DNA of 58,493 nt from an uncultured Lentisphaeraceae bacterium (GTDB taxonomy: Bacteria; Verrucomicrobiota; Kiritimatiellia; RFP12; UBA1067): assembly GCA_964390795.1 (NCBI GenBank), contig CAYMLQ010000003.1, positions 1-58,493 on the forward strand, written 5' to 3'. This document shows, piece by piece, positions 13,875-52,198 of the stretch (positions are counted from its first letter, which is position 1; the number at the start of each line of letters is the position of its first letter). The notes under the pieces were generated by a model that saw nothing but the letters and a program-made list of their open reading frames with translations, was not told the origin of the DNA and made no database searches. Both the position numbers and the translations under genes were made by a program.

Positions 13875-13881
13875 AGCGCTC

Positions 13882-14274: not shown

Positions 14275-14302
14275 ATTTAGGAGTTAGGAGTTAGGAGTTG
14301 CA
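14275..14302 (+). repeat. Heptamer tandem repeat (AGTTAGG)
   Basis: ATTTAGG AGTTAGG AGTTAGG AGTTGCA. Confidence 0.85.
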
Positions 14303-14443
14303 ATACCTTGAAGATGAATAGCGTATACGATCCGTAAAACGGCAGGTTAGAGTGTCTGTAGGATGAGGACGCCATTTTTCCCCGTGCCAAGGCGCAAAGC
14401 CCGCTAAGTTTACAACTTCTGTCATCCGATTTCCAAACCGTCT

Positions 14444-14716
14444 TCATCTTCCAAACAAATCCGCATGTGTCCCCGTTCTTTCAAGCAAAAGGGTTTCGAT
14501 CCCCGGCGTATAAATAAGAATCCAGTCCGGTTCGACGTGGCAGTCGCGTGATGGAGCCCATGCGCCAATGAGCGGATGATCGCGGTATTGGGGGGAAAGA
14601 GGCTTTCCGTCTGCTAATAGACGGACAATAACTTGGAGCTTGAGCAAATCCTTGCCCCGCTTTCGCATTCGCTTCACATCGCGGTGAAACTGCTTGGTTT
14701 GCGAAACCTGTTTCAC
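14444..14716 (-). CDS. yafQ: Type II toxin, YafQ/RelE family mRNA interferase
   Basis: FHRDVKRMRKRG, YRDHPLIG, RDCHVEPDWILIY and RTGTHADLF. The GTG start overlaps the antitoxin TGA (GTGA). Confidence 0.9.
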   Translation of the reverse strand: MKQVSQTKQFHRDVKRMRKRGKDLLKLQVIVRLLADGKPLSPQYRDHPLIGAWAPSRDCHVEPDWILIYTPGIETLLLERTGTHADLFGR

Positions 14717-14970
14717 TTCTCCCAACTCTCGAAGAGGTCGTCAAGGGTGTCGAACGTTTCCACGTCTTCACCTCGGCGACTCTTAGCAAGAGTTGCCGCG
14801 GTTCTTTCATTAGGAATTGAAACGGCGAACGGAAGTCCGCGCCGGAGAGTGATTTGGCGATAGAAGATGCCGATCGCATCCGTCGGGCTGATTCCGAGGC
14901 TTTGAAGCACATCTTCAGCCTGAATCTTCACCTGTGGCTCGATTCGTGCGTGTATGACTGCTGTTTTCAT
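14713..14970 (-). CDS. dinJ: Type II antitoxin, RelB/DinJ family
   Basis: 85 aa, MKTAVIHARIEPQVK...LGISPTDAIGIFYRQI...GLPFAVSIPNERT...FDTLDDLF, directly upstream of the yafQ-like toxin. Confidence 0.9.
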   Translation of the reverse strand: MKTAVIHARIEPQVKIQAEDVLQSLGISPTDAIGIFYRQITLRRGLPFAVSIPNERTAATLAKSRRGEDVETFDTLDDLFESWEK

Positions 14971-14976
14971 GGGTTC

Positions 14977-15006
14977 ATTGTGACACAATCGCAACACGTG
15001 GGTCAA
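14977..15006 (-). promoter_or_regulatory. Putative toxin-antitoxin promoter with an overlapping palindromic operator
   Basis: Minus strand TTGACC-18 bp-CACAAT. The palindrome ATTGTG-A-CACAAT at 14977-14989 covers the -10 element, which is the usual geometry for autorepression. Confidence 0.6.
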
Positions 15007-15056
15007 GTCGTGTCTTGGTATTCTCTTTCCAGATTTCTCCCAGCAGCTATTTTTCG

Positions 15057-15121
15057 CACGCCAATACCCCAAGACGCCAAGGGGTCCAATAACCTTTGCG
15101 TCTTCGGGTCTTCTTGGCGTG
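15057..15121. repeat. Imperfect inverted repeat built from GCCAAG/GCAAAG-type units (REP-like)
   Basis: CACGCCAA...CCAAGACGCCAAGG pairs with CCTTTGCGTCTTCGGG...TTGGCGTG. A related half-unit, GCCAAGGCGCAAAG, lies at 14386-14399. Confidence 0.6.
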
Positions 15122-15551
15122 AACCAATCTACCCGGTGCCTAGCCGTCCGTCGTTCGGCTGTCTTAGACCTGGCAAAATACGATGCCGTAAGGAGTTCAC
15201 GCGCTACTTCCAGTGCGCGGGTTTCGCGATGTTGCTGACAGATAGGCGTCCAGACGCAATCCGCGGGTTCGGCGGACAAAACGATACTGAACATTAACGT
15301 ATGAAACAGTTGATCATAGCAAGGGTGTTTCATCACATTAAAGTTACGCGAATACGTAAACATCTGAAAATCAATGAGTGGCACGCTCGCCGACCAGTCG
15401 GCTGGCATGACGCGGCAAATTGTCGTGACGCGCGGGTTTGACGTTATGAACAGCCAAGCTGTACATAACGACCAGACGGTTTTTGTGGACACCCATATTT
15501 TACCCCCACTTCGCTCTTGCCCGCCGCGCCAATACACGGCATCATACTGGC

Positions 15552-43200: not shown

Positions 43201-44532
43201 CGTTGCGCCCGTATACGAATTGGTTCCCGAGAGAATCCACGTGCCGCTGCCGGCCTTGGTGATCGCCAACGAGTATACGCCGACGTTAGCGAGAGGCGCG
43301 CTGAACTCGCCGATGCCAGCCGTCGAGCCCTGCAGCGTCAGCGTCCTGCTTGCGCCAAGGATGTTCGGGGTTGCCGTGAAGGTCAGTTTGCCGCTCGCGC
43401 CGGACTGGTCGATCTTGGGGTCGCTGTTCACTACGATGATACGGTCACTGTTTTCGCCAATACCCGTGTAGACCAGCCGTCCATTGGCGGTGAAAATGAT
43501 GTTTGTGCCCTGGCCAAGGTTACTGGTCAGCGAGCCGCGGTTTCCGATTCGCGAAACGAATAGAGAGCTGATTGTGCCGAAGCTGACATGGCCCAGGAAG
43601 GTGTTGGTGCCGTTGAAGACATAATTGCCGGTGCCCAAGCCGGCAGAGGGCTGCCATATCTCAATGCCGCCTAAGCCGGTGATATTTGCGTTGACGGTAA
43701 GCGTGCGGCCCGGCGCCACATTCAGGTCTGTATAGTTAAAGAAACCGTTTAAAGCGGTATCGGTGGTGCCCAACTTCAGGCTCCCGGACCCGTTGATGGT
43801 GCAATCTTGGTAACAATTGAGCGCGTTTCCGCCCCCCGCGTTGAGATAGAGTTCTTTGTCGCCAATGTCGATGACGCTGCTGGGGCCGCCGTACATGTTG
43901 AGCTGCGTGAGGGTGTTCGAACCCGCAAGCGTGATGGTGCTCGTGTTGTAAGTGGTTAAGTACAAGGATGCTGCGCCACCAAGACGCAGACTGTTGAACT
44001 GAACCGGGCCGTTGCCGAGAACCGTCAGCGTCTTGTTTCCGGGGGCACCGCTGGTCTCGATCGGGCAACCGAAAACGTCGGCGAACAAGAGGGATCGTGC
44101 GGGATTGTCGTTGCGGAACGTGTACGGCTGGGTCGCCCGGTCGCCGCCGAGCTGAACGCCGCAGTTGAAGATCTGGCTGTTGCCGGCCGTAGAGGAGAGC
44201 GTGATTTCGCCGCTGTCGGCCAGCACAAGCGTCTGGCTGCCAGCCGCGCCTGTCCCGATCGTGTAGGCGGCAACACTGGGCGTGTCGAAGCGTACATTCC
44301 GGATATATTGGATGCCCGTCAGGTCGATATTCGTCTGGTCGTTGCCCGAGCCAGTGAAGAAGGCAGTCTCGCCAACTCCCGACGGATACGGGGACGCGCT
44401 CCAATTCGAGCTGTTCGTCCAGTAGACGCTTTGAGAGCCATTCCAGACACCGTTTGCGGCGTGCACTGTGCAGGCGGCAAAAAATACCACGGTGTTGACA
44501 ACAAGCAGAAACCGACGCCAGTTCATTTTCAT
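25231..44532 (-). CDS. Giant (6,433 aa) secreted adhesin-like protein with autotransporter-associated beta-strand (PATR) repeats and a PA14-like domain
   Basis: Signal peptide ending TVHA-A, many LTKxGxGTLxLxGxNTYxGxTxVxxGxL repeats, Gly/Thr/Asn-rich composition and a PA14-like segment near the C-terminus. The ATG at 44532 has an AGAGGT RBS. Confidence 0.9.
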   Translation of the reverse strand: MKMNWRRFLLVVNTVVFFAACTVHAANGVWNGSQSVYWTNSSNWSASPYPSGVGETAFFTGSGNDQTNIDLTGIQYIRNVRFDTPSVAAYTIGTGAAGSQTLVLADSGEITLSSTAGNSQIFNCGVQLGGDRATQPYTFRNDNPARSLLFADVFGCPIETSGAPGNKTLTVLGNGPVQFNSLRLGGAASLYLTTYNTSTITLAGSNTLTQLNMYGGPSSVIDIGDKELYLNAGGGNALNCYQDCTINGSGSLKLGTTDTALNGFFNYTDLNVAPGRTLTVNANITGLGGIEIWQPSAGLGTGNYVFNGTNTFLGHVSFGTISSLFVSRIGNRGSLTSNLGQGTNIIFTANGRLVYTGIGENSDRIIVVNSDPKIDQSGASGKLTFTATPNILGASRTLTLQGSTAGIGEFSAPLANVGVYSLAITKAGSGTWILSGTNSYTGATTVNGGKLLVNAPGGLLGAGSAATVNIGAVLGGTGMLNGSVTVASGGTLAPGDINTAGTLSLNSTLSLTAASLHFDLTAPDGLSSVTDKVTVASTVTLNGVNTISLNFPNGSAPEGSYTLMTFPYRTGTGSFVLSPAYPNVSLFTNATMVRLDVAPGGAKSLLWKGDASTSWDDGAQNWRTNGVALAFTPGDPVAFDDTAAQFAVSSSATVTPSSTLFNNSLSNFTVSAPIGGAGMVYKLGSGEVTLTGNNTFVSTVTIASGLLRIGEGGVLGAGNFGTNIINNGELVYASTVAQTNSGLITGSGNLTVCGSAPLTLSGTNTFSGLTLVTNGTLRIGSAGALGPSASGLGTVVASSGILELGAMPTGIVYATEPIELRGKLSCSNPGTNTVNGVISMYNNAVLDVGAGSTLFVGASTPDLGSNTVTKTGAGTLRFTGDPNHKSVFVVDQGTVELQHAGSTDAPWLISPGATLRQFTANCLGGYFVQANGTLDFPANGSIGGLSGIGLVTNSGASAITLTIGNNGQAGDFSGVIRNGAGAATVALTKTSTGIQTLSGANTHSGGTTLSGGVLNINNASALGTGTFIIGSASIDNSSGADITLASNNTLALNGDFTFIGSKSLNLGTGAASMNANRTVTVLTNTLSVGGAISGGYSLTKNGAGMLALSGANTYSGATTVNGGALIVNSPGSLASGSAVTVNTGATFGGSGTVNGVITAATNSLLAPGGLGAVGTLTVASASATALTLNGAVLTFDLATVADVGVNDLIALTGAGSKVVLTGVNRIALNFPTNGIPAGTYTLLSSVAGITTNAGASVTLLTAYPNATLEQGENSIVLKVTDTGIAGALWNGAYSGSWDGSDLNWLVGGAEAIYPAGAATIFDDTAAANSVVSSSGAVSPATLLFNNSTNNYTVAAQLEGTGPLTKQGSASITLSGMTAYNPALIAVNNGTLTFGGASQLNSGAYAGDIFNNGTFTFASSAAQTFSGMISGYGALTKYGNGTLTFAGSNLYSGATIVNAGILKVQHAYGLGLTTVGTTVNPGGNLELAGGVNTLAEALALNGTLSSQTGSNTFNGLVTLTSGSRIDVGTGSTLVLANSGSSCIQANGPFVKTGGGRLALLKDPNGNGQMTVREGIADIVAGTMDANVVVNNGAWLYACGSALNSTSSRLQVDAGGTCVLRGDNNIGGFAGAGLVTRDISGTNTLTIGNNNMSETFSGVITNGAGTLALKKTQTGVQILSGKNTYTGATTVELCGALYIVSPGSLGNTVVTVNNTGTILGGNGSIQGGVTLTGYNILSPGVSNTIGTLTLGSTLALTTSTLLCDISASPAEDYDRVTVAGALTLNGSNVVSLSFPAGAAAAGDYTLMTFASKAGTGTFQLAGAYPNAALVLSNTNLLLRVSGSGTSSLTWNGNVSASWDGSDANWLLGSGPATFTDGSAVAFNDAASSFNVTSLGDVTPSALVFNNAVNIYSVAANIKGTAPLNKFGLAATYLTGISSYNPSSVMIANGWLYLNQNAQLNGGVYSGNLIVNAGGFNYGSTPPQTLSGIISGSGGLTKSGSGTLTLANTNTFSGTMTVNGGTLYARACPAAMGTGGLTLSGGTMELDHDAGLTFVNNASMTASTGVKSGRLTYGPGVTNALGTLTLGNVTLSASAGLNVIPGTPYGLRFGNTTISGNTPTFDVANNGIGIGYLTLGTLSGNYHLNKQGAGTLFLGSSSARTAGTNTVTAGTLKLGHPYALGTSGATLALTLNSGILDLATDTSVTNYPTRVGGAATILSNKATPNSDGITHILGPLAITSNLGVAPGANVKAGTPFGLTFGTTTLLGNPAFDVAANGTLTLGSASGTYSVTKSGNGTLVFASPNAYTGVTAITRGRFIITGANGSISNTSAITLSGDSTLELRNSTASNWTDRVRNGVPLTLAGGTINFTHTGGATGYGETLGALSITSGTNQFVTSQANVGYTSVVTLASIARSGVSLINFVGEGLGDSNRNAIFIPGQPEGNLGPWATVNGTNFAFYSTTRGVCATTSTYDLAARGPDSVIPNDSNIVARINSPGVAGPITLDSTLTNRIFGIRQNTGTDAVISTLNGTANKILLTHGLFITDGQGSLTVGEKFGDGFLAPLVATEGLLLDVDGTSGILTLNSPIADIGGVVVLKKFGSGKVVLPNSSTYSGATTIHEGTLVAQHANALGATAAGTTVNTGAVLEVAGSIATAAEALTLYGTLSSQTGVNTYAGAVTAVLGSPVIDVGPSSILILSANGSTAGSGILTKTGAGTLRINGDPNLTGTGLYVINAGTMELNHSGTTDVPISIAPGATLINVLANCLHDSMSITNNGTFDIRGTDTMGMLVGGGRVTVGTGVSPTLTIGNESSKVATFSGVIENGRGVLSLSKSGNSTQILTGTNTYTGPTLLNERSGILLVNSPGSLKGTVAVTVSSGTTLGGNGAVMSPVTVLAGGCLLPADAGGIGTLTLGSSLTLNGATLYYDIPATLSASDAIDVAGVLTVNGVNTIALSFPGGVAPAGDYTLMNFASRSGAGTFVVLNSTPNATLELTATSLILHISSATGFGLTWNGNLSSVWDGGFLNWKNNSGAASYTEGSIVTFDDSLLANATVTSVGAGVSPSAIYININTNNYTINAAISGTAPLVKSGWTSAYLNNALNYNPASITVNPVGTLYIGTAGNAQLNNGTYNNPIFVNGGRFQFESGASLTLNSLITGGGSLSKYGTGTITLNAANTYRGGTTHGAGQMNINNGGIDNTASSIGIGRIYIGSGAIFDNLSGSDITLLTANPQDWNGDFIYAGSANSLNFGTGAVNLPASRTLTVRANTFTIGGIITQTSGQTYGLTKAGNGTLVLSGANAYGGTTTLSGGTLVAQAKTNVLGTGAITLNTAGTTLDYGNDTALTFNNAATVSASMTVKSGRLTPGPGVTHTLGTLSINASTLSMAPGTNTLVNTPYGLTYGATTLTADPAVFNVANNGSAAGTLTLGAVGGNFALTKKGNGVLRLASVSLLGGPLTSNNGRILAVTGGSCSNSTVTVQASDVADAAASLNILYSAANTQWTCSNLVTAVSLAPAASRPALDFSFAALPSTTVAPLRVRDTVTFATNPVVNVYMGNLTVPTNAYPLMVVGVSAPTVVPTLNMVGGYTNSFLYWNGNTLMLRLFASGVPLKWTPGVTSSGTWDINNSANLVWTNSAAMAYAYYQEPFGSGAAGDNVLFDDSTLTGPSTVTLSGAPSPSSVVMTNNLYAYTFAGSGVIAGAGTFSKLGTNRLTLATANTYTGATTFASGIVDIPAGAGLNVGNTANAGLLNVGTLSSKAVVNITGGTVNATKNSQPALQVGTTSGAIGVINLSAGVLNAGSDIWLGAGGNGQNGFGALNVTGGSVTSASYLAIGRASGATGNNRGELLVSGGTVTVNLNTLEIGSYQNAVANTCVATLTGGTVTMAAGAGDVRVGNSASGILNVSGSAALNVLNLGMSLRFGNGAGVVGIANLNGGTVTVPAVTQYSGAFGYLNFNGGTLKANKNNAAFISGLTAARIYAGGATIDDGGYALTIGQSLHSPWGNGVSLAGMTFSGTGFIAPPIVDIAGFGNGASAVATIDSNGNLTGVTLTSPGANYHMGTPTLTFTGGGGTVTQSGSASTVPNTSGGLTKRGAGTLTLTGTNTYSGATVVNGGRLVLVTGASCSNSAVTVQSVGTGTNALFGVRYAGSDAQAAVAGLTTSAGLSGGGAPDLEFAFAAVPSATTAPLAVTGDAAFTVTPGVRVILTGLTVANGTYPLMTVGGTAPSAVPALTLAGGYSGSTLSWVGNTLMLNLAGSAAALTWGTGAAGNGSWNINDSANLIWKDSAAASAYYQETAGSVGDPVVFDDTYVSLNNAVTLTTTVTPAGVTANNATFAYTLSGSGAIAGTNALVKSGAANFRLANANTYSGGTLINVGGVLQVSNSGGLGTGGVTNNGTLNLDAGAGGTGDVNYTGLNNSLSGAGTNNVSLGTGSARIYLTGNYSGFVGVWNIGVGAFAGASRAEMTGLDNAAATVNVLTNGTLWANSSVTRNATLNLYGGDTGESYGQLRLDAGLWAGPVALCGPITGVGDAFFGSQSSNSEISGPISEMNGPYEVSKVGATTLTLSGANTYLGPTAVKAGALRVATLGSVGGGASPLGAPTSAAQGTVKLGYTTAPGTLVYAGMGETSDRVIDLAGTTGGGTIDHSGTNLLALTGGLMHSGIGAKSLTFQGSTSGIGEFSGVIGNTPYGNAITVAKSGAGIWKLSNANTYSGGTTLNGGALVATHPNALGTGTITIPGTVATLYLDHNGVNAFTNYVLMNSLSVATVVLGNGGSEDAVSHSLGDFDLGSVTINVSAATNVVNGVPALNIPSINLSSGSAGSVILVPTNNATIRVGTAAILRSSAAKTLWLDGLSLGNVVTGPISNGLNTLSLTKANASTWTLYGSNTFGGATTISGGSLVLAGANGALAGTSALTLSGNAVLELRNSELTNATDRLRDLTGITLSGGTLRFAHEGGAADYSERMGALSVTASTNTFATSLADGGQTSVVTIASLAYASGATLDFTGTGLGQSDQNRIYITAQANGPIGAWATVNGTNLAAYSSTLGVYAFGASGSDVVTNLAARGNVPNSVVPDNANAFAQITEPGDSGPITLEGIWTNRIFMVQQSQPVAATIDTVSYTTNKTLLASALTIAAGQGSMTLGANPGNGYVAPLNPGGNLKLENNNAGAVLTVNAAVANNTTASTVSKYGSGTAVLAGSNTFSGAVTINAGTLEFGGPFAQRLSNVIGGAGSLAKSGTNQLHLLGANTYTGPTYINAGMVRPNQNNAFGNSTESVIIAEGATLNLGCTPDVGGTRAMDQLNLSTRLFIVSGAGYDGAGAIVNVSTTTQVSAMSRISLAGHTTFGGNQRWDLLTGSPTLDLNGYTLSKTNVNEIALRGTTLLNPGAGHIAINQGRLRFESAATINGTSANTNTVNSGGTFDLWNFVGSMPLWTLVLNENSLFTGSGTVPATNQNIWAGPVVLNGKSYLNNGSANVSWTINGDISGPGTLVRSGSSPSTLWLMSTNNTYSGQTIISNGTLFARAPGSLPGYDAGKVTIAPAATLALRSDDGVTGWNADQIKSLHDTSTFASNTAVLSIDTTPADVDYLGNLTKALALTKRGNNTLTLNGTNTFTGSLIVNGGTLVLPSSSTNAPGLITVSGGSTNTSLIIDGVTTIGTNTTHVVTVASASGDRSVATLSTNATFGKLLLGNVNGSSGAFIQKNGILAVGPTIGSTEVLNLGNGGGGYGYYRMNNGSLTTGQLGLGGGGGGNGVFDLYNGTVKVQTPNGWLIFNWGTGISILNMFGGSVTAPPGANDTTLSYAGNAANHGVINMLGSSALLDTTPNGRMLNMARSAGSYLAAVNLNSGTIRANKVYAQVTGTPTVFGFNGGTLLAGSSTNAFMQGLTAAPVYPGGAVIDSSNATVTVGQSLLAPTGYGVTYIPLLTGGTNYIGAPAVKITGGSGLGATAIATIDLDDGSPTKGQVTGITITSSGVGYQWYDAPVATLVGGGATTPATVGFCQLALNTSVGGLTKLGSGTLTLAGTNTYGGTTLINSGTLRLGLPNAIPTNAAVVVNGGTYDLGGFVSTITNGSVTVLSGSVSNGTFNASLNKIGPDSATLSAAQETAQPLVVSEGTLTLAPVSRSQRAGLYEGRSALSNFDLTSPNPMSQVKLSVTNAYLSFASNAASGGIWLDNSTYIYSGYIWNNSATNEVWTFNKAFDDSGLVKIDGVTIINDGVHSTNVLANVTMSPGPHALEVRLGQGTGGVGPNTSYPGIGVDRLGRNTRNAAYFQRLQDPGDGSFLTLSALGRADLLDSNSVVEVDTNATLNLGGTTQTVAQISGSGTVSNGTLAVTDVIAPGGTNVIGTLTVAASTTANGTLLVDLGANGSSDRLAVQGNLNMSGLSLQIANLEQLDTRKVYTIMTYTGSISGTFSTHNLPSTHWHVSYVNGAVKLIYVNGTLIRLR

Positions 44533-44594
44533 AACAACCAACCTCTTACTATTAATAGCCACGACCTGCACGCTTCCCAATTGAAGATGGTGAC

Positions 44595-44623
44595 AGAATA
44601 ATCATGAGATTCTTGGATGTCAA
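44595..44623 (-). promoter_or_regulatory. Sigma-70-type promoter of the giant gene
   Basis: Minus strand TTGACA (44623-44618), 17-bp spacer, TATTCT (44600-44595). Confidence 0.65.
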
Positions 44624-44636
44624 CGATATTTGTCGG

Positions 44637-44660
44637 CGATTTATAAACGATTTATAAACG
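44637..44660. promoter_or_regulatory. 11-bp tandem direct repeat (CGATTTATAAA x2), candidate transcription factor site
   Basis: Exact AT-rich duplication just upstream of the -35 element. Confidence 0.5.
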
Positions 44661-44780
44661 CGGGCGCATCCCTTTTTTCATTGACTTGTCGGGCAGTATC
44701 TTGCGCTGGGCGCGTCCGGAGGCCGCGCGCCACCCCTGAAAGACTCGCCGCGCAGGGTAGCCCGCGACCGGGCGCGGAAG

Positions 44781-45704
44781 TCAGTGAAACGGGAGTGCGC
44801 CCGTTTTGAGGGGTATAGGGCCGTTCTGACGATGCACCTTTACACCGTAGTAAACAGCCGGGACAGGCAAAACCACGTCCAGGGGCGACTCACGGCTTTC
44901 GGCGATGCGGCGTTCCAGCAGCACACGGTCCGCCGTGTTGAAGGCGAACATGCCGAAGTGGTGCGGGATCAGGCGCGGAATGCCGGCGTCTAAACAGAGC
45001 GTACAGGCCTCATCGAAATCCATATTGCCGGGAACGCCGCGGCTGGCCAGATACGCGCTACGCCCGTTGACCGGCAGCAGCGCCAGTGAGGCGCCCGCCG
45101 CACGCAGCTTTGCCGCCAGCCCCTCATACGCAACCCCGTCGCCGCCGTGATAAACCGTCTGCGCGCCGAACCTGAAAAGATAACCGAGGAAGTGATGCTC
45201 GCCCCGCTCGTTCTGCTTGAACGTCTCGTGCGCGGCGGCCAGCGCTGTGATGCCCGCATCGCCGCCCAAACCCAGCGACTCGCCGGCGTTGAGCAGCGTC
45301 ATCCGCTGTTCGGGCACCCCGGCCTTGAGAGCAGCCTCGCGTTCGGCGCGCGGCACCGCGAACCGGCAGTGCGGGTTGTTCTCAGCCAGCACACCCAGCG
45401 ACCCCGGATCCATGTGGTCGCTGTGGCGGTGCGTGCAGAACACCCAGTCCAGCCCCCGGACCGCTTCTGCCGCAAGCGGCGGCGGCATCAGGCGCTGGTG
45501 CGGAAACTCCTGCCCCGCATACTTCACCGCCAGATAGTCCGAAAGATAAGGATCAACCATGATCCTCAGCTTCTCATAACGCAACAGGAAGCCGGCCTGC
45601 CCCAGCCAGGCCAGGCCCAGCACGCGCGGCGGCAGTTCTGCGGCGAGCAGCGCGGACGCTCCGCCCGCGTGTCGCTCCAACGGCCCGTGTGCGAGTTCAG
45701 TCAT
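44781..45704 (-). CDS. Metallo-beta-lactamase-fold hydrolase (UlaG-like lactonase family)
   Basis: WLGQAGF, VDPYLSD, THRHSDHMD, YHGGD, LLPVNG and IPHHFGMF. The start is 45704 or 45713. Confidence 0.88.
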   Translation of the reverse strand: MTELAHGPLERHAGGASALLAAELPPRVLGLAWLGQAGFLLRYEKLRIMVDPYLSDYLAVKYAGQEFPHQRLMPPPLAAEAVRGLDWVFCTHRHSDHMDPGSLGVLAENNPHCRFAVPRAEREAALKAGVPEQRMTLLNAGESLGLGGDAGITALAAAHETFKQNERGEHHFLGYLFRFGAQTVYHGGDGVAYEGLAAKLRAAGASLALLPVNGRSAYLASRGVPGNMDFDEACTLCLDAGIPRLIPHHFGMFAFNTADRVLLERRIAESRESPLDVVLPVPAVYYGVKVHRQNGPIPLKTGALPFH

Positions 45705-45709
45705 TGCCC

Positions 45710-48625
45710 TCACTTGCCTTGTTTCGCGGCAAGCGCCTTGAGCGTGGCCAGATCCTCTGCTGCAAAGCGCTCACGCTTGGCCTGATATTTTGCGAACTTC
45801 GCACGCTCTTCATCGTTCCACGCGCCTGCCTCGGCGTAATCGCCGCAGAACGGCACGCCCAGGTCAACCCACGCGGCGAGCACGGCGACCTCTTCCGGCT
45901 TGATCGTCTTGCAGTGACCATCGTCCAATTTCTTAAAGAGCGAGCTGGTGTTCGCCCCTGCGGAATAAGGCTTCTGAAGGGGCGGCGCGGAGGCGGCCGA
46001 CACCCAGTTGAGTAAAGGTTTGGTCGGGTCTCCGCGCCACCGCGACGCGTCGTCCTTGCCATCTGGGCGCGCGTGCGTCAGCGCCAGGTACGACCGCGTC
46101 CAGTTGCGCTTGGCGCCGGGATCGAGAACGCAGGCGCCGGTCAAATCCGGCTTCTTGCCGTCTTTGCCGTCGTGGCACGAGACGCAGTGCTTGTCCAGCA
46201 CCGGCTGCACCTCTTTGGCGAAGCTGAACCCGCGCCGCGGCCCGCGGATTGGCGCGAGCGTCTGCGCGCCCGCAGCCAGCGCTTTGGTCGGACGGGCCGA
46301 CGCGAGCGGCACGCTGTTCTTCGACTCGTGACAGCCGACACAGGAGGCGTTCTCGCCGGGCTGGAGCGTGGTCCAGCTCCGCATGGTTTGCACTGTGCGC
46401 CCTTTGGCGTCCAGCAGCATGAAGTAGACCGGCCGGCGTGCCTCGGTCGTGAAGAACACCGAACCGTCCTCGTGTACCGTGGCGTCGCCCACCAGAATCT
46501 TCGGATCCCACGCGCCGTTTCCTATAGAGACCGGCGTGCTGATCATCGCGCCTCCGCCCGGGCCGCCGTTGCCGTTATTGCCGATGCCCGCAGTCCGGAA
46601 GTCGAGCTCGACCACGCGCAGCGTTTTGACCGTTCCGCGCGGCACCCCCGCCATGGCCTCGCCCACATACACGTCCTGCACGTAGAACGTTCCGTCAGGC
46701 TGGCCGTAGCGAACCGCCTGCGGGCGGCGCGGCGGGCGTACGCGCGGCCGCAGCGGCACGGCGCGGCCGCAGGCGATACCCAGGCGCGACGACAGCAGCT
46801 CGCGCCGGCCGTCGATGTCCATCCAGTAGACGCCGAAGCCGGTCATGCGGTTCTCGTCGCGCTTCGCGAACCTGCGGTTCCAGCCGATCGGGTTGTAGGT
46901 GACCAGCAGTGACTTCCCATCCAGCGGATACGGATAGGCGAAGAGATCCTTCTCCTGCCCGTACGCGTCGACCACCACCGGCTTGGTCTCGCGCACCGGC
47001 GCTACTCGCGTGACGCCCTCCGCCTCCTGCCGCCCTTTCGACGGCTCGATCAGAATCAGCTCGCCCGGCTGCCGCGAGTGGTGGCCCGTGGCGATGGCGA
47101 AGATATTGCCGCTGCCCGGGATGCCGCGCGCATGGATGATCGTGGTCGGGAACCACGAGTTTTCGCCGTACACCGCGGTCTGCGCCACGCCGTCCGGCCA
47201 CATCTGGAAGAGCGGTTGCGGGTACATCTGCGAGCGGTCGTTGTACTCCCAGCGGGTGTACAGGATGCGGCCGTCCCAGGTGATCGACGGATAGTTCAAG
47301 TGCACCTGGTCGAAGGACAGACGCAACATGCTCTTCCCGTCTTTGTCACAGCGGTAGAGGTTGCTCACCTCCGTCCACCAGCAGTCCACAATCTGCATGC
47401 AGCGAGTGGAGTTGAAAAGGATGTCCCCATCCGGCAGGTAACAGCCCTCGTAATCGGCAGCGCCCAGCCCTTCTGTCAGTTGGCGGATCGCATGCGTCCC
47501 CGCGTCCATCTCATACAGGTGGTAATCGTCCTCCCGATCCGATTTCTTCCACGAGAACAGGATCTTCTTGCCGTCAAAGTCGACGTCCACATCGCGGATG
47601 ACCCCCTCCGGGCTGTCGATCAGCACGGTCTCTTTCCAGAGCCCGTCCGGCTGAGCCTCGGCCAGGCAGAGCTTCGCGCCCGCCCGGAAGTTCCGCTCGG
47701 CCTGCGCGTCGGAGAGCGCCTCCGTGTATGCGTAATGCGAGCCGCCCATCACGAAGTGACGCGCATACACCAGCTGCGGCGTCTCTGCTGTCGCGCGGGC
47801 CACGCGTTGGGCGCGGCGTGCGGCGCACACCTTGCGATAGAAGGCCAGCACCGTGGCGTCATCGCCAGCAGGCACGCGCGCCGTCTTCCACGCGCCGCCC
47901 ACCGCAGCGGACGTCTCGGCCAGCGCCTTTTCGGCGGCCTTGCGCAGGTTCGCGGAACACGTGCCGCTGGCGAACAGCTCGATGCCGTAGGGCGCGTCCA
48001 AATCCTGGCGCAGCCAGTCGGCAAGCACCTCGTCGGCGTGTTCCAGCGCGCTCCACAATGTCAGCGCCGTCGCTTTCTCCGCATCATTCAGCGGACGTCC
48101 GACAACCTTCTCAACAAACGCCACTGCTCCCGGCAGCACCTGCAGCGATGTGTCGAACGAGAGTTCCAGATCGATCCCCTGCCCGCCCGACGTCTGCCTG
48201 CAATGCGCAGCCAGCACGTTCTTGCCGCTCTTGAGCGTGGCGAGCGCGGCGGGCGCGATCGCGAAGTCGCGGTAGGCGGTGATATAGCCCTCCGCCTTGC
48301 AGGCCTCGACGCCGTTGAGGTAGACCACGACATCCTCGTCATGGATCATGCGCACGACCGGCTTGATATTCGGCGGCACGCTCACGTCAAGGATGCGGCG
48401 CAACCAGATTTCGGGCGTGGCCCACTTGGTCCGGATCTCCATGCCCGGCGCGCCCGTTCCGAAGGCCGGCGTGCCGCTCTTCCATCCCGACGCGTCAAAC
48501 TCGGGCTTGTACCACGCGTCTGCCGGCTTCTCCGTCGTATACGACCAGACATTCTCCCCCTTGCCGAACGCTGTGCCGCACACGGCCAGTACCGACAGAA
48601 TCAAGCTCATCCTGAGTCGCTTCAT
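45710..48625 (-). CDS. Secreted hydrazine-synthase-alpha (HzsA)-related protein with an N-terminal galactose-binding-like domain and two CxxCH heme motifs
   Basis: Signal peptide; WKSGTPAFG...IWLRR...HDED...LNG domain; beta-propeller motifs (YLPDGDILFNSTR, DGRILYTRWEY); the HzsA middle-domain pattern LLDAKGRTVQTMRSW..LQPGE..SCVGCHE; a second motif CVSCH. Confidence 0.8.
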   Translation of the reverse strand: MKRLRMSLILSVLAVCGTAFGKGENVWSYTTEKPADAWYKPEFDASGWKSGTPAFGTGAPGMEIRTKWATPEIWLRRILDVSVPPNIKPVVRMIHDEDVVVYLNGVEACKAEGYITAYRDFAIAPAALATLKSGKNVLAAHCRQTSGGQGIDLELSFDTSLQVLPGAVAFVEKVVGRPLNDAEKATALTLWSALEHADEVLADWLRQDLDAPYGIELFASGTCSANLRKAAEKALAETSAAVGGAWKTARVPAGDDATVLAFYRKVCAARRAQRVARATAETPQLVYARHFVMGGSHYAYTEALSDAQAERNFRAGAKLCLAEAQPDGLWKETVLIDSPEGVIRDVDVDFDGKKILFSWKKSDREDDYHLYEMDAGTHAIRQLTEGLGAADYEGCYLPDGDILFNSTRCMQIVDCWWTEVSNLYRCDKDGKSMLRLSFDQVHLNYPSITWDGRILYTRWEYNDRSQMYPQPLFQMWPDGVAQTAVYGENSWFPTTIIHARGIPGSGNIFAIATGHHSRQPGELILIEPSKGRQEAEGVTRVAPVRETKPVVVDAYGQEKDLFAYPYPLDGKSLLVTYNPIGWNRRFAKRDENRMTGFGVYWMDIDGRRELLSSRLGIACGRAVPLRPRVRPPRRPQAVRYGQPDGTFYVQDVYVGEAMAGVPRGTVKTLRVVELDFRTAGIGNNGNGGPGGGAMISTPVSIGNGAWDPKILVGDATVHEDGSVFFTTEARRPVYFMLLDAKGRTVQTMRSWTTLQPGENASCVGCHESKNSVPLASARPTKALAAGAQTLAPIRGPRRGFSFAKEVQPVLDKHCVSCHDGKDGKKPDLTGACVLDPGAKRNWTRSYLALTHARPDGKDDASRWRGDPTKPLLNWVSAASAPPLQKPYSAGANTSSLFKKLDDGHCKTIKPEEVAVLAAWVDLGVPFCGDYAEAGAWNDEERAKFAKYQAKRERFAAEDLATLKALAAKQGK

Positions 48626-48642
48626 GCATCCCCTCCCCCAAA

Positions 48643-49581
48643 TTAACTCTTCCTCAGCTCCGCCAGCAGATTGTCCACCGCCATCTCTACGGAACGGTCC
48701 ACGCTCTCGGAGGTAAACGAGCCGATGTGGGCCGACGCGATCACCTGGCTGGTGCGTGCCAGCGGGTCGTCGGCCGCAGGCGGCTCGGTCTTGAACACGT
48801 CGGTCGCCAGCCCGGCCACCTGGCCGCTGGCCAGCGCGGCCGCCATCGCAACGGGGTCGATCAGCTCCGCGCGGGCCGTATTGATCACGTACACGCCGCG
48901 TCTCATCCGAGCGATCGCGGCGGCATCGAGCAGCGGCTTGCCGTCAGGCAGGGGCGGGCAGTGCAGCGTCACGATGTCGCTCGCCGTCAGCACCTCCTCG
49001 CACGTCGCGTAGCGGAACGCGGGGGACGGCGCGAAGTCCGCGCAGGGATAGAGGTCAAAGGCCAGCACGCGCATCTCCAGCGCGGTGGCGAAGGTCGCCA
49101 CCAGGCGACCGATCGCGCCGCAGCCGACGATGCCCAGCGTCTTGCCAGCCAGCTCGAAGCCCTTGCGCCGCTCCCAGCCGCCCGCCTTGATCGACGCGTC
49201 TGTATAGGTGATCCAGCGCGCGAGGGCGAACAGGTGCGCCAGCGTCAGCTCGGCCACGCCGCGGGAGTTCGCGCCGGGCGTCTTGCAGACCGCGATGCCG
49301 CGCGCCGCCGCAGCCGCGAGATCCACGTTGTTCACGCCCACGCCGTTGCGGCTGATCACCCGCAGCTCCGGCGCCGCCGCCAGAATGCCCGCATCAACCG
49401 TCTCGACGCCCGCCAGATAGCCGACACAGCCCGGCAGCAGCGCGAGCAGCTCCTCGCGCGTCGGCTGCTTGCCGCGCGTCGGGAAGACCACCTCGAAGCC
49501 CGCGTCCGTGAGCCGCTGTAACGCGGGATGCCCGTCGGACGAGACCGAACGCGGCGTCACCAAGATCCTGTTGCTCTTCAT
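48643..49581 (-). CDS. D-2-hydroxyacid dehydrogenase (phosphoglycerate dehydrogenase-like, no ACT domain)
   Basis: ISRNGVGVNNVD, GIVGCGAIG, INTAR, DVFKTEP and AHIG. ATGA overlap with the upstream gene. Confidence 0.88.
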   Translation of the reverse strand: MKSNRILVTPRSVSSDGHPALQRLTDAGFEVVFPTRGKQPTREELLALLPGCVGYLAGVETVDAGILAAAPELRVISRNGVGVNNVDLAAAAARGIAVCKTPGANSRGVAELTLAHLFALARWITYTDASIKAGGWERRKGFELAGKTLGIVGCGAIGRLVATFATALEMRVLAFDLYPCADFAPSPAFRYATCEEVLTASDIVTLHCPPLPDGKPLLDAAAIARMRRGVYVINTARAELIDPVAMAAALASGQVAGLATDVFKTEPPAADDPLARTSQVIASAHIGSFTSESVDRSVEMAVDNLLAELRKS

Positions 49582-50174
49582 ACGACGATCACCGCCTTCC
49601 CCTGACACTCCACGATACGCTTCGGGAACCCCTCGACCTCGATGTCCCCGTAATTGTGCCCCGCGTCGGCCGGGTAGACGCAGAACGAAATGAGCGGTTC
49701 GCAGCCGGTGTTGACCGAGCGGTGCGCCCAGTGCGGCGGCACGTAAACCATGCGGTTCCGGTACATGGTCTCGGCCTCGCAAAAGCCCGCCGCAGTCTTC
49801 ATCAGCATGTACCCCTGGCCGCGCAGGCAGAGATAGGTCTCGGCGGTGCCGCTGACCGTATGGTAGTGCCCCTTAGTGAAGAAATACTCGTCGCCGACCT
49901 TGCCCGGATAGAGCTTGCTGATACAGAGCAACAGATGCCCGTACGCCTCCGGAATCACCTTCTCAAATACTTCGTAGTGTACCGGATCGCCGTCGCGGAT
50001 CAGCGCGTCCAGCGCGGCCGCGTCTCGGTAATACCCTTTCATCGCCGACGCGCGGCGCGCCAAGACGCGGTCCGGCTCCGCCATCGTGCCTTCGACCAGA
50101 TCGATATCGATGCCCCAAGGCATCATCAGTTCCTGGGGCTGACCGCCCCCTGCCGTTGCTGCCACCGTCATCAC
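49578..50174 (-). CDS. Cupin-type (archaeal-like) glucose-6-phosphate isomerase family protein
   Basis: PGKVGDEYFFTKGHYH, ETYLCLRGQG, VYVPPHWAHRSVNTG and YPADAGHNY, which match cupin PGIs. Confidence 0.88.
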   Translation of the reverse strand: MMTVAATAGGGQPQELMMPWGIDIDLVEGTMAEPDRVLARRASAMKGYYRDAAALDALIRDGDPVHYEVFEKVIPEAYGHLLLCISKLYPGKVGDEYFFTKGHYHTVSGTAETYLCLRGQGYMLMKTAAGFCEAETMYRNRMVYVPPHWAHRSVNTGCEPLISFCVYPADAGHNYGDIEVEGFPKRIVECQGKAVIVV

Positions 50175-51160
50175 CGTGCCTCCTTCGCAAGTCGTGATAG
50201 CGTTTCAAAAACCGGACCGCTCGTCGGGATGTCCGCATGGAACACCTCGGCGATCACGCGGGTCCACCCGTGGATAAAATAGATCCAGCCGTCCTCGACC
50301 GTCAGGCCGCGCGCGACCTTCTGCGCGTTCGCCTGGTGCAAAAACTCCAGACTGCCGCGATAATTAAATTCCCATGCTAACCCAGACTCAGGGAAAACGC
50401 AACGGTCGGTAAGCGGCGAGCCCGGCGCATCCTTGCCCAGCCCAGTCGCGTTCATCACCAGCGAGTGGGGCTTGAGCGCCGCCATGAGCGCATCGTTCGT
50501 CTCCGCCTGCGGCGCCAGCACGTACTCCACCGGCACGCGGCAGCCCATCTTGTGGTGAATCTCGCGGATCTCATCGAGGCGGCCCTGGCTGCGGTTCGAG
50601 ACCACGATGCGTGAAGGTACGTTGGCGCCGCGCGCGGCCTCCATCAGGTAGCAGGTGATGGCGATCGACGAGCCTCCCGCGCCGATAGAGAAGACTTCCG
50701 CGCCGGTCTTCAGCCAGTGGTCTGCAGGCAGGAAAGCCTCCAGCGCAAGCCCGCTCGTGATCGGGTCTTTGGCGTGTCCGCAGAGCAGCCCGTCGCGCTT
50801 GGAGATGCTGCTGATCTCCCCCATCAGTTCCGCATAGGGATCCAAATAGCCGAACAGGTCACGGCAGGCTTTGAGCAGGTCCAGCTTGTGCGTGGTCACC
50901 AGCGCGCCCAGCGAGAGCGGGTCGCTCTGGATAAACGTCACGATGTTGCGGTACACGGCCGGGTCATCGTGCCACTTGCAGTCGATCCCCTGGATCGCGA
51001 CGTCGCCGAATCCCAGATACTCCGCCCACTTGGGAAAGACCTTCATGATCGACGATTGCCCGGTGGTCATGCCGATGAAATAGATCGTCGGCTTGACCGC
51101 CTGCGGAAACGCCGTGGTTGCCGTCGCTTGAAGTGCCTGCGCCATACCCTGTTTCTCCAC
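50171..51160 (-). CDS. Shikimate-dehydrogenase-like (AroE fold) NAD(P) oxidoreductase, substrate unknown
   Basis: GALVTTHK, IGAGGS, VSNRS, NATGLG, WEFNY and VEDGW. The layout is AroE-like but the substrate motifs differ. The start is 51160 (GTG) or 51145 (ATG). Confidence 0.75.
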   Translation of the reverse strand: MEKQGMAQALQATATTAFPQAVKPTIYFIGMTTGQSSIMKVFPKWAEYLGFGDVAIQGIDCKWHDDPAVYRNIVTFIQSDPLSLGALVTTHKLDLLKACRDLFGYLDPYAELMGEISSISKRDGLLCGHAKDPITSGLALEAFLPADHWLKTGAEVFSIGAGGSSIAITCYLMEAARGANVPSRIVVSNRSQGRLDEIREIHHKMGCRVPVEYVLAPQAETNDALMAALKPHSLVMNATGLGKDAPGSPLTDRCVFPESGLAWEFNYRGSLEFLHQANAQKVARGLTVEDGWIYFIHGWTRVIAEVFHADIPTSGPVFETLSRLAKEAR

Positions 51161-51195
51161 CTGTTCCGCGTGCTGTTACACCTGAAAAGGCTGGT

Positions 51196-51224
51196 ATCAT
51201 ACAAATGTCCGTACAATCTGTCAA
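51196..51224 (-). promoter_or_regulatory. Sigma-70-type promoter of the aroE-like operon
   Basis: Minus strand TTGACA (51224-51219), 17-bp spacer, TATGAT (51201-51196). Confidence 0.72.
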
Positions 51225-51353
51225 TCGACAAAAATCACGAGAAGTCTCAAGAATAGCGTTTTGTTTCCACATGCAAGAACGATAGGTTTGTACCTGGTGA
51301 TGACCATCGGCAACTGGGTCAACAACGGCCAACCTTGGGCGACCGCCGGGTTG

Positions 51354-51482
51354 AGCGGCAAATCCTTGAACGTGAACGGCGCGTAAAAAAGAGATAACGC
51401 GAATATCCAGATCTGGACTTACAGCGGAGGCCGGCCCGAAGAGACGTGGATCATTACGCCGACCGATAGCGGCTTCTCTCGG
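51354..51482 (+). pseudogene. Ricin-B lectin (beta-trefoil) gene fragment
   Basis: Translates as SGKSLNVNGA*KRDNANIQIWTYSGGRPEETWIITPTDSGFSR, with a QxW motif and an in-frame TAA at 51384-51386. Confidence 0.6.
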
Positions 51483-51786
51483 GTGCCGGCCCGGTTCGAC
51501 GGCGGCTTTGAATTCGGGTCATACCCTCACCAATAGCGTGAGCGACGCACGCGTGGCTGCACTCGCACGCTATGGAAACAACGGGGGCCTCGCGGGCACT
51601 AACAACCCGGGCGGGGACAGCTCGGTCGGCCCCTGAAAGTAAGGCCGTGTGCAAGTATATCAAGGGCGATCGCCTGCTTGAGGCTATTTTCGGAGTGGCA
51701 CGCCAGCCGTATAGCCACCGTGTTAATGCTCGATTGACAGCGGGCACGATCAATATTTTGCCCGTCCCTACAATTGAGGCTTGTCC

Positions 51787-52095
51787 CAAGGCAAGCGCAT
51801 CTTAATTTTCAGGTCTGAGATTACGGGCTGGGGCGGTCACTCCCGAGGCATCCGCGGGCGCCTGCGCGACAGGGTCGGGTGTCAGCGAGTCGGGTACGCC
51901 CCGAGAGAGGCGTCCGGGGCGTGGACAGGCGCAAAGCGGCGGCGGGTGGCGTGCGTCCGTGCCCGGCTAAAACGAGGAGAGCAGCTCGACGAGGAAGCTT
52001 CGTCTGAGCTCGGCGCGCATGCGCTTGCTGCGCAAGCTGCCTTTCGCCTTGCTGGAGCGCAGGATGTTGAGGCAGATCTTGCGCAGCGCGCCGAG
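51787..52095 (-). mobile_element. ISAs1-family insertion sequence remnant (transposase C-terminus and one terminal inverted repeat)
   Basis: 52095-51967 encodes LGALRKICLNILRSSKAKGSLRSKRMRAELRRSFLVELLSSF*, an ISAs1 C-terminal pattern. CAAGGCAAGCGCATC at 51787 resembles ISAs1 ends. Confidence 0.7.
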
Positions 52096-52198
52096 TGACA
52101 GTACACCGTTGCGTCGTTGGGATTATTGTGGTATTACACATGACGGACGAGTTCATCGAGCGAAGGTTCCGTCCTGCCAGCATAAAGGAGAGCCTCAC

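Follow-up and report, generated by a model that had tools for sequence, protein, structure and literature searches.

A hydrazine-synthase-alpha homologue with two heme-c motifs, encoded within a recurrent set of sugar-phosphate-type genes

A 58,493-nucleotide stretch of DNA from an uncultured Lentisphaeraceae bacterium (assembly GCA_964390795.1, contig CAYMLQ010000003.1; hereafter the window) encodes a 971-residue exported homologue of HzsA together with four enzymes that appear to be cytoplasmic. HzsA is a subunit of anammox hydrazine synthase. Genes for relatives of the 971-residue protein recur next to the same enzymes, and next to further carbohydrate-type partners, in many gene orders and in several phyla, and we consider a functional tie between the HzsA-like gene and sugar-phosphate metabolism very probable. 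We read the operon of the window, which belongs to a bacterium of the PVC group, probably of the Kiritimatiellota, as the local version of a conserved but much rearranged gene set that would couple an exported HzsA-like redox enzyme to enzymes of phosphorylated sugars, a reading that falls only just short of an even chance. It builds on the gene structure, the homologies, export signals read by eye and conserved linkage, all of which are observed, and from which we infer the chemical steps, their order and the substrate.

Five genes in one predicted operon

The genes and the promoter-like site that precedes them are as follows.

50171..51160, minus strand: AroE-like dehydrogenase gene, first gene, 329 residues
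49578..50174, minus strand: cupin phosphosugar isomerase gene, 198 residues
48643..49581, minus strand: D-2-hydroxyacid dehydrogenase (HADH) gene, 312 residues counted from an ATG; the mechanical open reading frame (ORF) extends to 49782
45710..48625, minus strand: HzsA-like gene, 971 residues
44781..45713, minus strand: metallo-beta-lactamase-type (MBL) hydrolase gene, last gene, 310 residues
51224..51196, minus strand: sigma-70-type promoter-like site, TTGACA-17-TATGAT, matching 11/12 consensus positions, ~36 nt before the first start

The AroE-like and cupin genes overlap in GTGA and the cupin and HADH genes in ATGA. A 17-nt spacer with GGGGGAGGGG lies directly before the 971-residue gene, and the junction between the HzsA-like and MBL genes is either another GTGA overlap or an alternative ATG 9 nt further on. 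Only ~88–90% of the 310-residue MBL ORF is spanned by its relatives, so its true start may be downstream. A consensus scan of positions 44300–52200 returned four promoter-like sites (1.2 ± 1.1 in shuffles), none of them within the operon on its own (minus) strand. Terminator-like sites also numbered four (6.0 expected), all within coding sequence. A regulatory RNA search gave no Rfam match upstream of or in the operon at E ≤ 1, and neither tandem repeats nor tRNA genes were found. By this anatomy, namely a shared strand, short or overlapping junctions and one promoter-like consensus match, the five genes would form a single operon. The initial annotation of this DNA had proposed one promoter and five tightly coupled genes, and the overlaps and the TTGACA-17-TATGAT match bear it out.

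Linkage to carbohydrate-type genes recurs across phyla

Related loci were collected with one genome per species, which gave at least 601 pattern matches, at least 588 of them confirmed. The best 80, designated here by L numbers, were analysed together with as much as 10 kb of flanking sequence to either side; the named phyla among them are Planctomycetota (36), Verrucomicrobiota (16), Kiritimatiellota (13), Lentisphaerota (5), Chloroflexota (2) and Sumerlaeota (1). The four neighbour genes of the window recur in 10 of the 80 loci at E ≤ 1e-5. Further partners were found by clustering all flanking ORFs, and the resulting nine cassette genes were counted by tblastn (E ≤ 1e-8, at least half of the query covered). 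At least one of the nine lies within 10 kb of the HzsA-like gene in 20 of the 80 loci:

zinc-type alcohol dehydrogenase (Zn-ADH): 16/80 loci
FGGY (xylulokinase-type) kinase: 15/80 loci
exported SGL/NHL propeller: 12/80 loci
cupin isomerase: 7/80 loci
HADH: 7/80 loci
AroE-like protein: 6/80 loci
DUF6905 membrane protein: 6/80 loci
MBL hydrolase: 4/80 loci
PTE-family protein: 3/80 loci

As controls, 14 unrelated proteins of the window were run against the same loci; 12 matched none of the 80, and two ABC ATPases matched 5 and 7.

The cassette-linked loci display at least eight gene orders and belong to five named phyla. L060 (and also L003 and L001) has, in this order, genes for DUF6905, FGGY kinase, Zn-ADH, PTE, AroE-like protein, cupin, HADH and HzsA-like protein, which in L060 are eight consecutive co-directional ORFs. 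L004, from a Lentisphaeraceae genome, has, likewise consecutive and co-directional, the order HzsA-like, SGL, Zn-ADH, FGGY, AroE-like, cupin, HADH, MBL. Each of these two eight-gene runs includes all enzyme types of the window, and they have the HzsA-like gene at opposite ends. Loci of the Akkermansiaceae type have HzsA-like, SGL, two DUF6905, FGGY and Zn-ADH genes; L007 and L009 have HzsA-like, FGGY and Zn-ADH genes, to which L007 adds an upstream GntR-type and a downstream DeoC-type aldolase gene. Six loci from planctomycetes have the HzsA-like gene running divergently to the SGL, kinase and ADH genes; L023 and L029 have an AroE-like/cupin/HADH(/MBL) block 7–9 kb away; and in the Sedimentisphaerales the order is MBL, HzsA-like, AroE-like, cupin. 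Among these loci MBL and PTE genes never occur together, and they take the same cassette position (PTE in L001, L003 and L060). SGL does co-occur with MBL (L004, L029), which points to a separate function for SGL.

A FastTree phylogeny of 70 family members of at least 600 residues, with 6 shorter ones omitted, was used to map the linkage. Descent of the cassette-linked genes as a single clade was rejected, since 12 changes were needed (shuffled mean 16.2; 5 of 500 shuffles as low). The many orders, phyla and clades in which the linkage is seen argue for functional coupling rather than inherited synteny. Among the relatives listed for the AroE-like and MBL proteins, at least 120 for each, thirteen lengths of the longest contig are common to both lists, a slight hint that these two genes tend to lie on one contig. 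The initial annotation had placed the HzsA-like gene among carbohydrate-type genes and had named lack of co-transcription together with lack of such linkage in orthologues as what would refute it; linkage was found in 20 of the 80 loci. It overlooked that the conserved gene set extends beyond the operon.

The HzsA-like protein has both heme-c motifs and a predicted HzsA fold

Features of the 971-residue protein are listed below.

48563..48625, minus strand: Sec-type signal peptide, residues 1–21, MKRLRMSLILSVLAVCGTAFG, recognized by eye and seen as a low-pLDDT N-terminal helix in the model
48131..48562, minus strand: N-terminal beta-sandwich, residues 22–165, GH2_N-type or galactose-binding-like
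46646..47779, minus strand: TolB/PD40-like beta-propeller, residues 283–660
46328..46342, minus strand: first heme-c motif CVGCH, residues 762–766
46172..46186, minus strand: second heme-c motif CVSCH, residues 814–818

PF18582, the HZS_alpha middle domain, matches residues 664–767 with 102.5 bits (cut-off 26.6), and the sole relative of solved structure that sequence searches reveal is HzsA of Kuenenia (phmmer E=1.9e-10; E=1.7e-19 with a profile of 42 relatives). An AlphaFold model built on 103 relatives (pLDDT 94, pTM 0.89) has HzsA, 5c2v_A, as its top Foldseek match (E=4.5e-30, 804 columns, TM 0.63 by target, 16% identity). The next folds are TolB propellers at ~1e-11, S9 peptidase and LRP propellers are also listed, and an Atlas search with the propeller returned PD40/TolB clusters. 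In the genuine long frames of the window CXXCH occurs only as the CVGCH and CVSCH of this protein. Thus the secreted HzsA-like protein with these two motifs that the initial annotation described is confirmed by PF18582, by the eye-read signal peptide and by the motifs at residues 762–766 and 814–818, and the comparison of structures extends to all three parts of the HzsA fold.

At the level of alignment the heme ligands are partly shared. In the numbering of PMC12758564, which equals the phmmer chain index + 27, C762/C765/H766 of the first motif align with C583/C586/H587 of HzsA (heme alpha-I), C814/C817/H818 of the second align with the motif of heme alpha-II, and H904 aligns with the distal ligand alpha-His772 (chain index 745; posterior ~0.7). 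Neither motif varies in any of the 103 sequences compared, and at least 90% of these keep H904. In HzsA, Tyr591, four residues past the motif His, is the iron ligand of heme alpha-I (main text of PMC12758564). In the 971-residue protein H766 is followed by ESKNSVPLAS, in which N770 is at +4 and none of the ten residues is Tyr, and across the family this region has the consensus CVGCHExKNxxP. The Tyr591 ligand, which sets heme alpha-I of HzsA apart, is accordingly missing. At a position occupied by Ala in HzsA, the family conserves Met748. The propeller gave no significant sequence alignment with that of HzsA, where the Zn site is formed by His587 and Cys303, and its family-invariant polar residues across the 103 sequences include R408, D439, R458, Y461, D463 and D478.

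The protein is a homologue of HzsA and not an HzsA, because it scores 50.3 bits on the NCBIfam hydrazine-synthase-alpha equivalog NF052339, where the cut-off is 800, and because the window holds no HzsB/HzsC-like gene (best tblastn E=0.28), just as had been stated for hzsB and hzsC at the outset. The same two facts bear on whether the protein performs nitrogen chemistry like that of hydrazine synthase, with hydroxylamine, NO, ammonia or an amino group as substrate, for example on amino sugars or in detoxification of reactive nitrogen. The homology to HzsA does run over the whole length, 'alternative substrates' have been proposed for the family (main text of PMC10732223), and a few relatives are fused to or lie beside HzsBC-like proteins (P0127 and L065, described below). 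Yet only one of the 80 loci has such a gene, no nitrogen-cycle gene is found among their recurrent neighbours, and the Tyr591 ligand is missing, as the main text of PMC12758564 reports for other homologues too. We regard nitrogen chemistry as very improbable.

The heme sites could also belong to a periplasmic cytochrome for electron transfer or peroxide handling that does not act on sugars directly and is co-expressed for redox balance or peroxide removal. Two c hemes would suit such a role, the second probably being bis-His like the electron-transfer heme alpha-II of HzsA, and Met748 could serve as sixth ligand of heme 1. Many relatives stand alone, and genes for SOUL/glutathione-peroxidase fusions lie near the HzsA-like gene in L007 (15855–16946) and L010 (3410–4549), neighbours that may hint at peroxide or heme handling. 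A simple carrier, though, would need neither a propeller of 380 residues with invariant polar positions nor fused sugar-binding modules, and no conserved redox partner is found nearby, an HzsBC-like gene being present in 1/80 loci. This role seems to us improbable.

A glycosidase-like sandwich domain and a polar propeller pocket

Residues 22–165 have no Pfam match, PF02837 included. When a profile of 18 copies of the domain was compared with the PDB, it matched GH78 rhamnosidase 3w5m (E=9.6e-10) and GH2 BgaA (E=1.8e-4), and for a separate domain model (pLDDT 89) all listed top Foldseek matches were GH2 glycosidases (E=8e-6 to 4e-4, TMq 0.4–0.61). From these profiles and models, the domain is assigned as a GH2_N-type 'sugar-binding' sandwich, a label that names the predicted fold rather than measured ligand binding. 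In respect of fold, the galactose-binding-like domain of the initial annotation is upheld by the GH2 and GH78 matches. The sandwich is mobile within the family; it is N-terminal in some members and follows the first heme domain in L047, L061, L063, L075 and L077.

Two candidate activities fell away. Likeness of the propeller to PQQ-type sugar dehydrogenases was rejected, as only TolB/PD40-type folds came after HzsA, and a lead to PL22 oligogalacturonate lyases (E=0.31) was not significant and disappeared in the profile search.

The HzsA-like protein might still be a hydrolase or lyase without redox chemistry, with its active site in the polar propeller pocket, its hemes structural, regulatory or relic, and the cytoplasmic enzymes processing an ordinary released sugar. 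Several families of lyases and hydrolases are built on propellers, the propeller of this protein contains most of the polar residues that are invariant in the family, accessory domains of lectin type occur as they do in glycosidases, and glycosidases, sulfatases and esterases adjoin some relatives. Idle hemes, on the other hand, are hard to reconcile with CXXCH motifs that never vary and an H904 that is so widely kept. There is no significant match to a catalytic domain of a glycosidase or lyase, PL22 reaching only E=0.31 and none appearing among the Foldseek top matches, and the partners that recur are of dehydrogenase and lactonase type, as would suit a redox route. On this evidence we think a protein devoid of redox chemistry unlikely.

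Enzymes of the operon and of the wider cassette

The cupin isomerase matches PF06560 with 87 bits (cut-off 20.7) and, over residues 18–196, the archaeal cupin PGI 1j3p (E=3.3e-48), a likeness over its full length; by homology the 198-residue protein is a full-length relative of cupin-type phosphoglucose isomerase (PGI). HADH contains both domains of its superfamily (PF02826, 166 bits; PF00389, 93 bits). Its best PDB matches are short 3-phosphoglycerate dehydrogenases (PGDH; 1wwk, E=2.6e-53) and its 240 bits on the PGDH equivalog TIGR01327 fall under the cut-off of 454, so that it classifies as a PGDH-like member of the D-2-hydroxyacid dehydrogenase superfamily. These domain matches agree with the labels of cupin PGI and D-2-hydroxyacid dehydrogenase given at first.

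The AroE-like protein has no Pfam match even at E ≤ 10, Shikimate_dh_N and Shikimate_DH included. Against NCBIfam shikimate dehydrogenases its best score is 41 bits (E=9.6e-11; cut-offs 200–432) and its PDB matches are weak (E ~2e-3). Atlas clusters labelled 'putative shikimate dehydrogenase' match it at 0.98–0.99, and relatives that are 66–77% identical occur in Planctomycetota, Nitrospiraceae, Hydrogenedentes and others. It appears to represent a divergent family of shikimate-dehydrogenase-like NAD(P) dehydrogenases that has no Pfam model and falls below the scores set for shikimate dehydrogenase itself.

The last enzyme matches PF12706 with 71 bits and has the HxHxDH motif in the form THRHSDH, so the MBL fold of the 'UlaG-like MBL hydrolase' originally named is sound. 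The UlaG part of that name is weak, with 36.4 bits on NF008688 (L-ascorbate-6-phosphate lactonase, UlaG; cut-off 306) and PDB matches to 3bv6 (E=4e-6) and UlaG (E=8e-4), although many relatives are called UlaG by one naming source. We class it as a superfamily member and a candidate phospho-sugar lactonase. The idea of a lactonase step gains support from the PTE-family protein that takes the MBL position in the cassette of other genomes.

Judged by eye, none of the four proteins encoded with the HzsA-like protein has a signal peptide. That these enzymes are housekeeping proteins of aromatic amino acid synthesis, glycolysis and serine synthesis, lying by meaningless adjacency beside an unrelated exported protein, is very improbable. 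Such an account can point to the high conservation of the AroE-like family, which pipelines name shikimate dehydrogenase, and to phosphoglycerate dehydrogenases and true PGIs as the nearest relatives of HADH and cupin. Against it, the trio recurs beside HzsA-like genes together with a kinase, Zn-ADH and a lactonase-type gene in varied orders and phyla, whereas 12 of 14 control genes match no locus and the two ABC ATPases only 5 and 7; its genes share stop/start overlaps in the window, and the AroE-like protein lies under every shikimate-dehydrogenase cut-off and has no Pfam model.

Several partners found elsewhere also resemble enzymes of phosphorylated sugars. The FGGY kinase scores 404 and 386 on the XylB (xylulokinase) equivalog, above the cut-off of 380. 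Among NCBIfam families the PTE protein comes closest to 'phospho-furanose lactonase' (173, cut-off 630), and it matches PDB 3msr/3ovg (E=1e-37) and 3pnz (E=5e-32), which we take to be phosphorylated sugar-lactone hydrolases; Zn-ADH is nearest to E. coli RspB. Signal or lipoprotein-type peptides were present in 7 of 7 SGL/NHL proteins inspected, which match NHL propellers and, weakly, gluconolactonase. HzsA-like proteins likewise have signal peptides and the MBL and PTE proteins none. The DUF6905 family, on which no literature was found, consists of small membrane proteins of hydrophobic character that are often encoded in tandem. Two small hydrophobic tandem genes lie between the exported SGL/NHL gene and the kinase gene in L030 (13676–14534) and L031 (4662–5551); both match DUF6905 in L031 and only the second does in L030, where the first has no Pfam match. 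The pair may be a two-part transporter. Taken together, the homologies suggest a system in which HzsA-like and SGL/NHL proteins are an exported pair, another component sits in the membrane, and the enzymes in the cytoplasm are all most closely related to ones that handle phosphorylated sugars, lactones or hydroxy-acids.

A large family of HZS_alpha proteins

A 90%-clustered collection held at least 2761 relatives at E ≤ 0.001 among 8000 candidates scored. All 120 proteins among the matches listed carry PF18582, their names are only 'hypothetical protein' or a Pfam domain name, and their records come from Kiritimatiellia, Puniceicoccales, Verrucomicrobiota and Planctomycetota. The best relatives of the 971-residue protein are 92%, 78% and 79% identical to it. 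A 50%-clustered library gave 7076 representatives at E ≤ 0.001 and 1438 at E ≤ 1e-30, with lengths from ~470 to more than 2100 residues. HZS_alpha was found in all 42 of the top representatives scanned, and 12 of the 42 had F5/8 type C, DUF7402, NPCBM, LamG_3 or GH2_N-type domains; CBM35, PA14 and Ig-like domains are also present in the family.

Some members have unusual arrangements. In protein P0127 the HzsA-like part is followed by an HzsBC-like propeller and a di-heme peroxidase part (CCP_MauG and cytochrome c domains), and in L065 a 643-residue cytochrome/propeller (HzsBC-like) gene at 12507–14438 starts 5 nt after the HzsA-like gene, the only HzsBC-like gene in the 80 loci. Two HzsA-like genes are found in some loci, among them L002 (9944–12943 and 16582–19413), L005 and L040. 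The second copy in L002 and L005 is a very long-branched paralogue (end branches 1.6–1.8 in FastTree). Many members of the family stand alone.

A proposed route and the evidence that weighs on it

In the route that we propose, the 971-residue protein would act outside the cytoplasm, bind a sugar or glycan end through its GH2-type sandwich and the strongly conserved polar pocket of its propeller, and perform a redox conversion, most likely an oxidation, with the two c-type hemes relaying electrons. An exported SGL/NHL propeller would work alongside it in many relatives. The small product would then be imported, for which DUF6905 membrane proteins or other transporters are candidates in relatives. 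A xylulokinase-type FGGY kinase would phosphorylate it and Zn-ADH would also handle it, neither gene being in the window. In the cytoplasm the cupin isomerase might interconvert ketose-phosphate and aldose-phosphate, the AroE-like dehydrogenase form a phospho-lactone, the MBL hydrolase (PTE elsewhere) open that lactone, and the PGDH-like dehydrogenase work at C2 of the resulting phospho-aldonate. Phosphorylated intermediates would fit because the kinase lies above the XylB cut-off, PTE is near phospho-furanose lactonase, HADH is near PGDH and the cupin is a PGI relative. The compartments would fit because the SGL-like and HzsA-like proteins have signal peptides and MBL and PTE have none. A glycan as target would suit the lectin-type domains carried by many members of the family.

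Oxidation of a sugar by the HzsA-like protein itself, which is proposed by analogy with the periplasmic gluconate shunt of Pseudomonas, is tentative and stands somewhat below an even chance. Of the pathway suggested in the initial annotation, the link to carbohydrate-type genes is thus well founded, while a periplasmic heme enzyme that oxidises or cleaves a sugar is still what we infer and not what we observe.

Several observations weigh against this route. No gene for an electron acceptor or partner cytochrome is encoded nearby. According to abstracts, cultured Kiritimatiellia are fermentative or obligate anaerobes, so that oxidation of a sugar in such hosts would need a suitable acceptor. 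The propeller has no recognizable cofactor site, and the rejected PQQ likeness counts on the same side. Conservation of the AroE-like protein at 66–77% across phyla, together with the PGI-like and PGDH-like proteins, could be read as housekeeping. FGGY kinase, Zn-ADH, PTE, SGL and DUF6905 homologues were not found in the 58-kb window (E ≤ 1e-3). Finally, 41 of the 80 loci have at least 8 kb of flank and hold none of the nine cassette genes, and the neighbours in cassette-less loci are mixed, many of them housekeeping genes (UvrC, histidinol dehydrogenase, ThiC, PdxJ and others).

Another 10 of the 80 loci have less than 4 kb of flank. The survey of cassette-less loci covered 117, from 48 loci, of the 128 ORFs that lie at most two genes away from the HzsA-like gene. 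Carbohydrate-type families were found in ~16–18 of the 48 and comprise GH20, GH127, GH106, GH43, GH42, sulfatase, FGE-sulfatase, esterase, GFO/IDH/MocA, xylose-isomerase-like TIM, ThuA, SGL and PfkB.

A broader joint claim would hold that PVC bacteria possess, in their stand-alone HZS_alpha proteins, a large and so far undescribed class of exported, redox-active carbohydrate enzymes with a heme-c-wired propeller and often lectin modules, that they oxidise sugars or glycan ends extracellularly, that a dedicated phospho-lactone pathway takes the product, and that anammox HzsA evolved from such an enzyme. In its entirety we find this doubtful, if conceivable.

Genes surrounding the operon

Directly downstream of the operon, at 25231–44580 on the minus strand, lies a 6449-residue ORF with its own promoter-like site (44623..44595). 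Its only Pfam family is PATR, the autotransporter-associated repeat, found in 16 stretches over the two pieces scanned. A divergent gene at 52019–57745 on the plus strand encodes a 1908-residue protein with DUF5122 beta-propeller repeats (16 stretches) and Ig-like domains. The operon thus lies between the genes of two giant proteins, presumably of the cell surface.

Upstream of the operon is an 860-nt gap that contains, at 51303–51530 on the plus strand, a frame that reads MTIGNWVNNGQPWATAG...NVNGA, a stop, and ...IQIWTYSGGRPEETWIITPTDSGF..., and that looks like a remnant of a decayed gene; its QxW-type motifs recall, we presume, a ricin-type lectin. An 11-nt word, TCGATTGACAG, stands inverted at 51218–51228 and 51730–51740, at both ends of the intergenic region, within a 22-nt inverted repeat that is 77% complementary, and a second pair is nested with it (51169–51188 and 51806–51825). 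One copy of the word overlaps the -35 hexamer of the operon's promoter-like site. The inverted repeat might act as a shared operator or mark the termini of an insertion that has decayed.

Elsewhere in the window, positions 2–8844 on the plus strand carry a complete-looking sulfate assimilation block with a sulfate-binding protein, two permeases, an ABC ATPase, two PAPS-reductase-family proteins (CysH/CysD-like), CysN with an APS-kinase part and sulfite reductase. A 274-residue ORF at 14713–15537 on the minus strand matches RelB antitoxin in its C-terminal 70 residues, and its long N-terminal part may be an over-extension of the ORF.

Significance and comparison with known systems

What is new here is a stand-alone, lectin-decorated HZS_alpha branch embedded in a conserved sugar-phosphate gene set. 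HZS_alpha-domain proteins outside anammox comprise thousands of sequence clusters, and the gene link is their first concrete functional context. The carriers, Planctomycetota, Verrucomicrobiota, Kiritimatiellota and Lentisphaerota, are known as polysaccharide degraders. Should the redox reading be true, the HzsA-like proteins would be a new kind of auxiliary-activity enzyme in glycan degradation, there would be a new cytoplasmic route through phosphorylated lactones, and the role of the HzsA ancestor would be hinted at.

With HzsA of Kuenenia stuttgartiensis (5C2V) the 971-residue protein shares the propeller, a middle domain with the first CXXCH and a C-terminal domain with the second, PF18582, and H904 aligned with the distal His of heme alpha-II. 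Unlike HzsA, to which it is 16% identical, it adds the N-terminal GH2-type sandwich and a helical linker, lacks the Tyr ligand after the first CXXCH and has no genes for beta or gamma subunits beside it; its propeller motifs are family-specific, and its context is one of sugar-phosphate enzymes and not of anammox genes.

Homologues outside anammox have been described twice. The main text of Hagglund et al. 2025 (PMC12758564) reports distant HzsA homologues that mostly lie beside fused beta-gamma homologues (clades I–IV), with clades II and III lacking heme alpha-II and clade I lacking His772, and over 600 Foldseek hits that bear no other name than 'HZS_alpha domain-containing' or 'cytochrome c domain-containing', without a tested function. 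This accords with the earlier statement that non-anammox homologues have no assigned function. The sole conclusion on origin in that text is that hydrazine synthase derives from heme proteins already present in the periplasm. In PMC10732223, Dalcin Martins et al. 2023 describe 'hzs-like' genes and suggest that hydrazine-synthase-like enzymes belong to a broader family working on alternative substrates. Those proteins and ours are alike in being HZS_alpha-domain cytochromes in which, as far as the main texts tell, key active-site residues of HzsA are not conserved; in contrast to them, the 971-residue gene has no beta-gamma partner, and both heme sites and the distal His seem to be kept. The words 'sugar' and 'carbohydrate' occur 0 times in the main text of PMC12758564, and that of PMC10732223 makes no such link either. 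No literature linking HZS_alpha proteins to sugars or carbohydrate genes was found in the main texts and abstracts searched.

The logic of the proposed route, external oxidation by a propeller or cytochrome-linked dehydrogenase followed by import, phosphorylation and a dehydrogenase for the phosphorylated keto- or hydroxy-acid, is shared with the gluconate/2-ketogluconate shunt and kgu operon of Pseudomonas (Gcd, Gad with its cytochrome c subunit, KguT, KguK, KguD), in which KguD belongs to the D-2-hydroxyacid dehydrogenase family. In that shunt, as outlined in PMC11678583 and 10.1101/2023.05.16.541031, periplasmic dehydrogenases are followed by a transporter, a kinase and a reductase. The two systems differ in that no homology of the HzsA-like protein to Gcd or Gad was found, the cassette kinase is of the FGGY/XylB type, and isomerase, AroE-like and lactonase steps would be added.

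A second parallel is modular. Some six-bladed PQQ sugar dehydrogenases are joined to a cytochrome and a carbohydrate-binding module, as in bacterial sGDH/YliI and fungal AA12 pyranose dehydrogenase, and the idea of a sugar-binding module, a six-bladed propeller and a cytochrome domain in one protein is common to both; no likeness of sequence or fold was detected, however, and the hemes of the 971-residue protein are c-type and covalent. As for the lactonases, the MBL and PTE proteins are each nearest to one family, UlaG and the PTE phospho-furanose lactonases respectively, and occupy the same cassette position, but both lie far under the cut-offs of these families (36 vs 306 and 173 vs 630).

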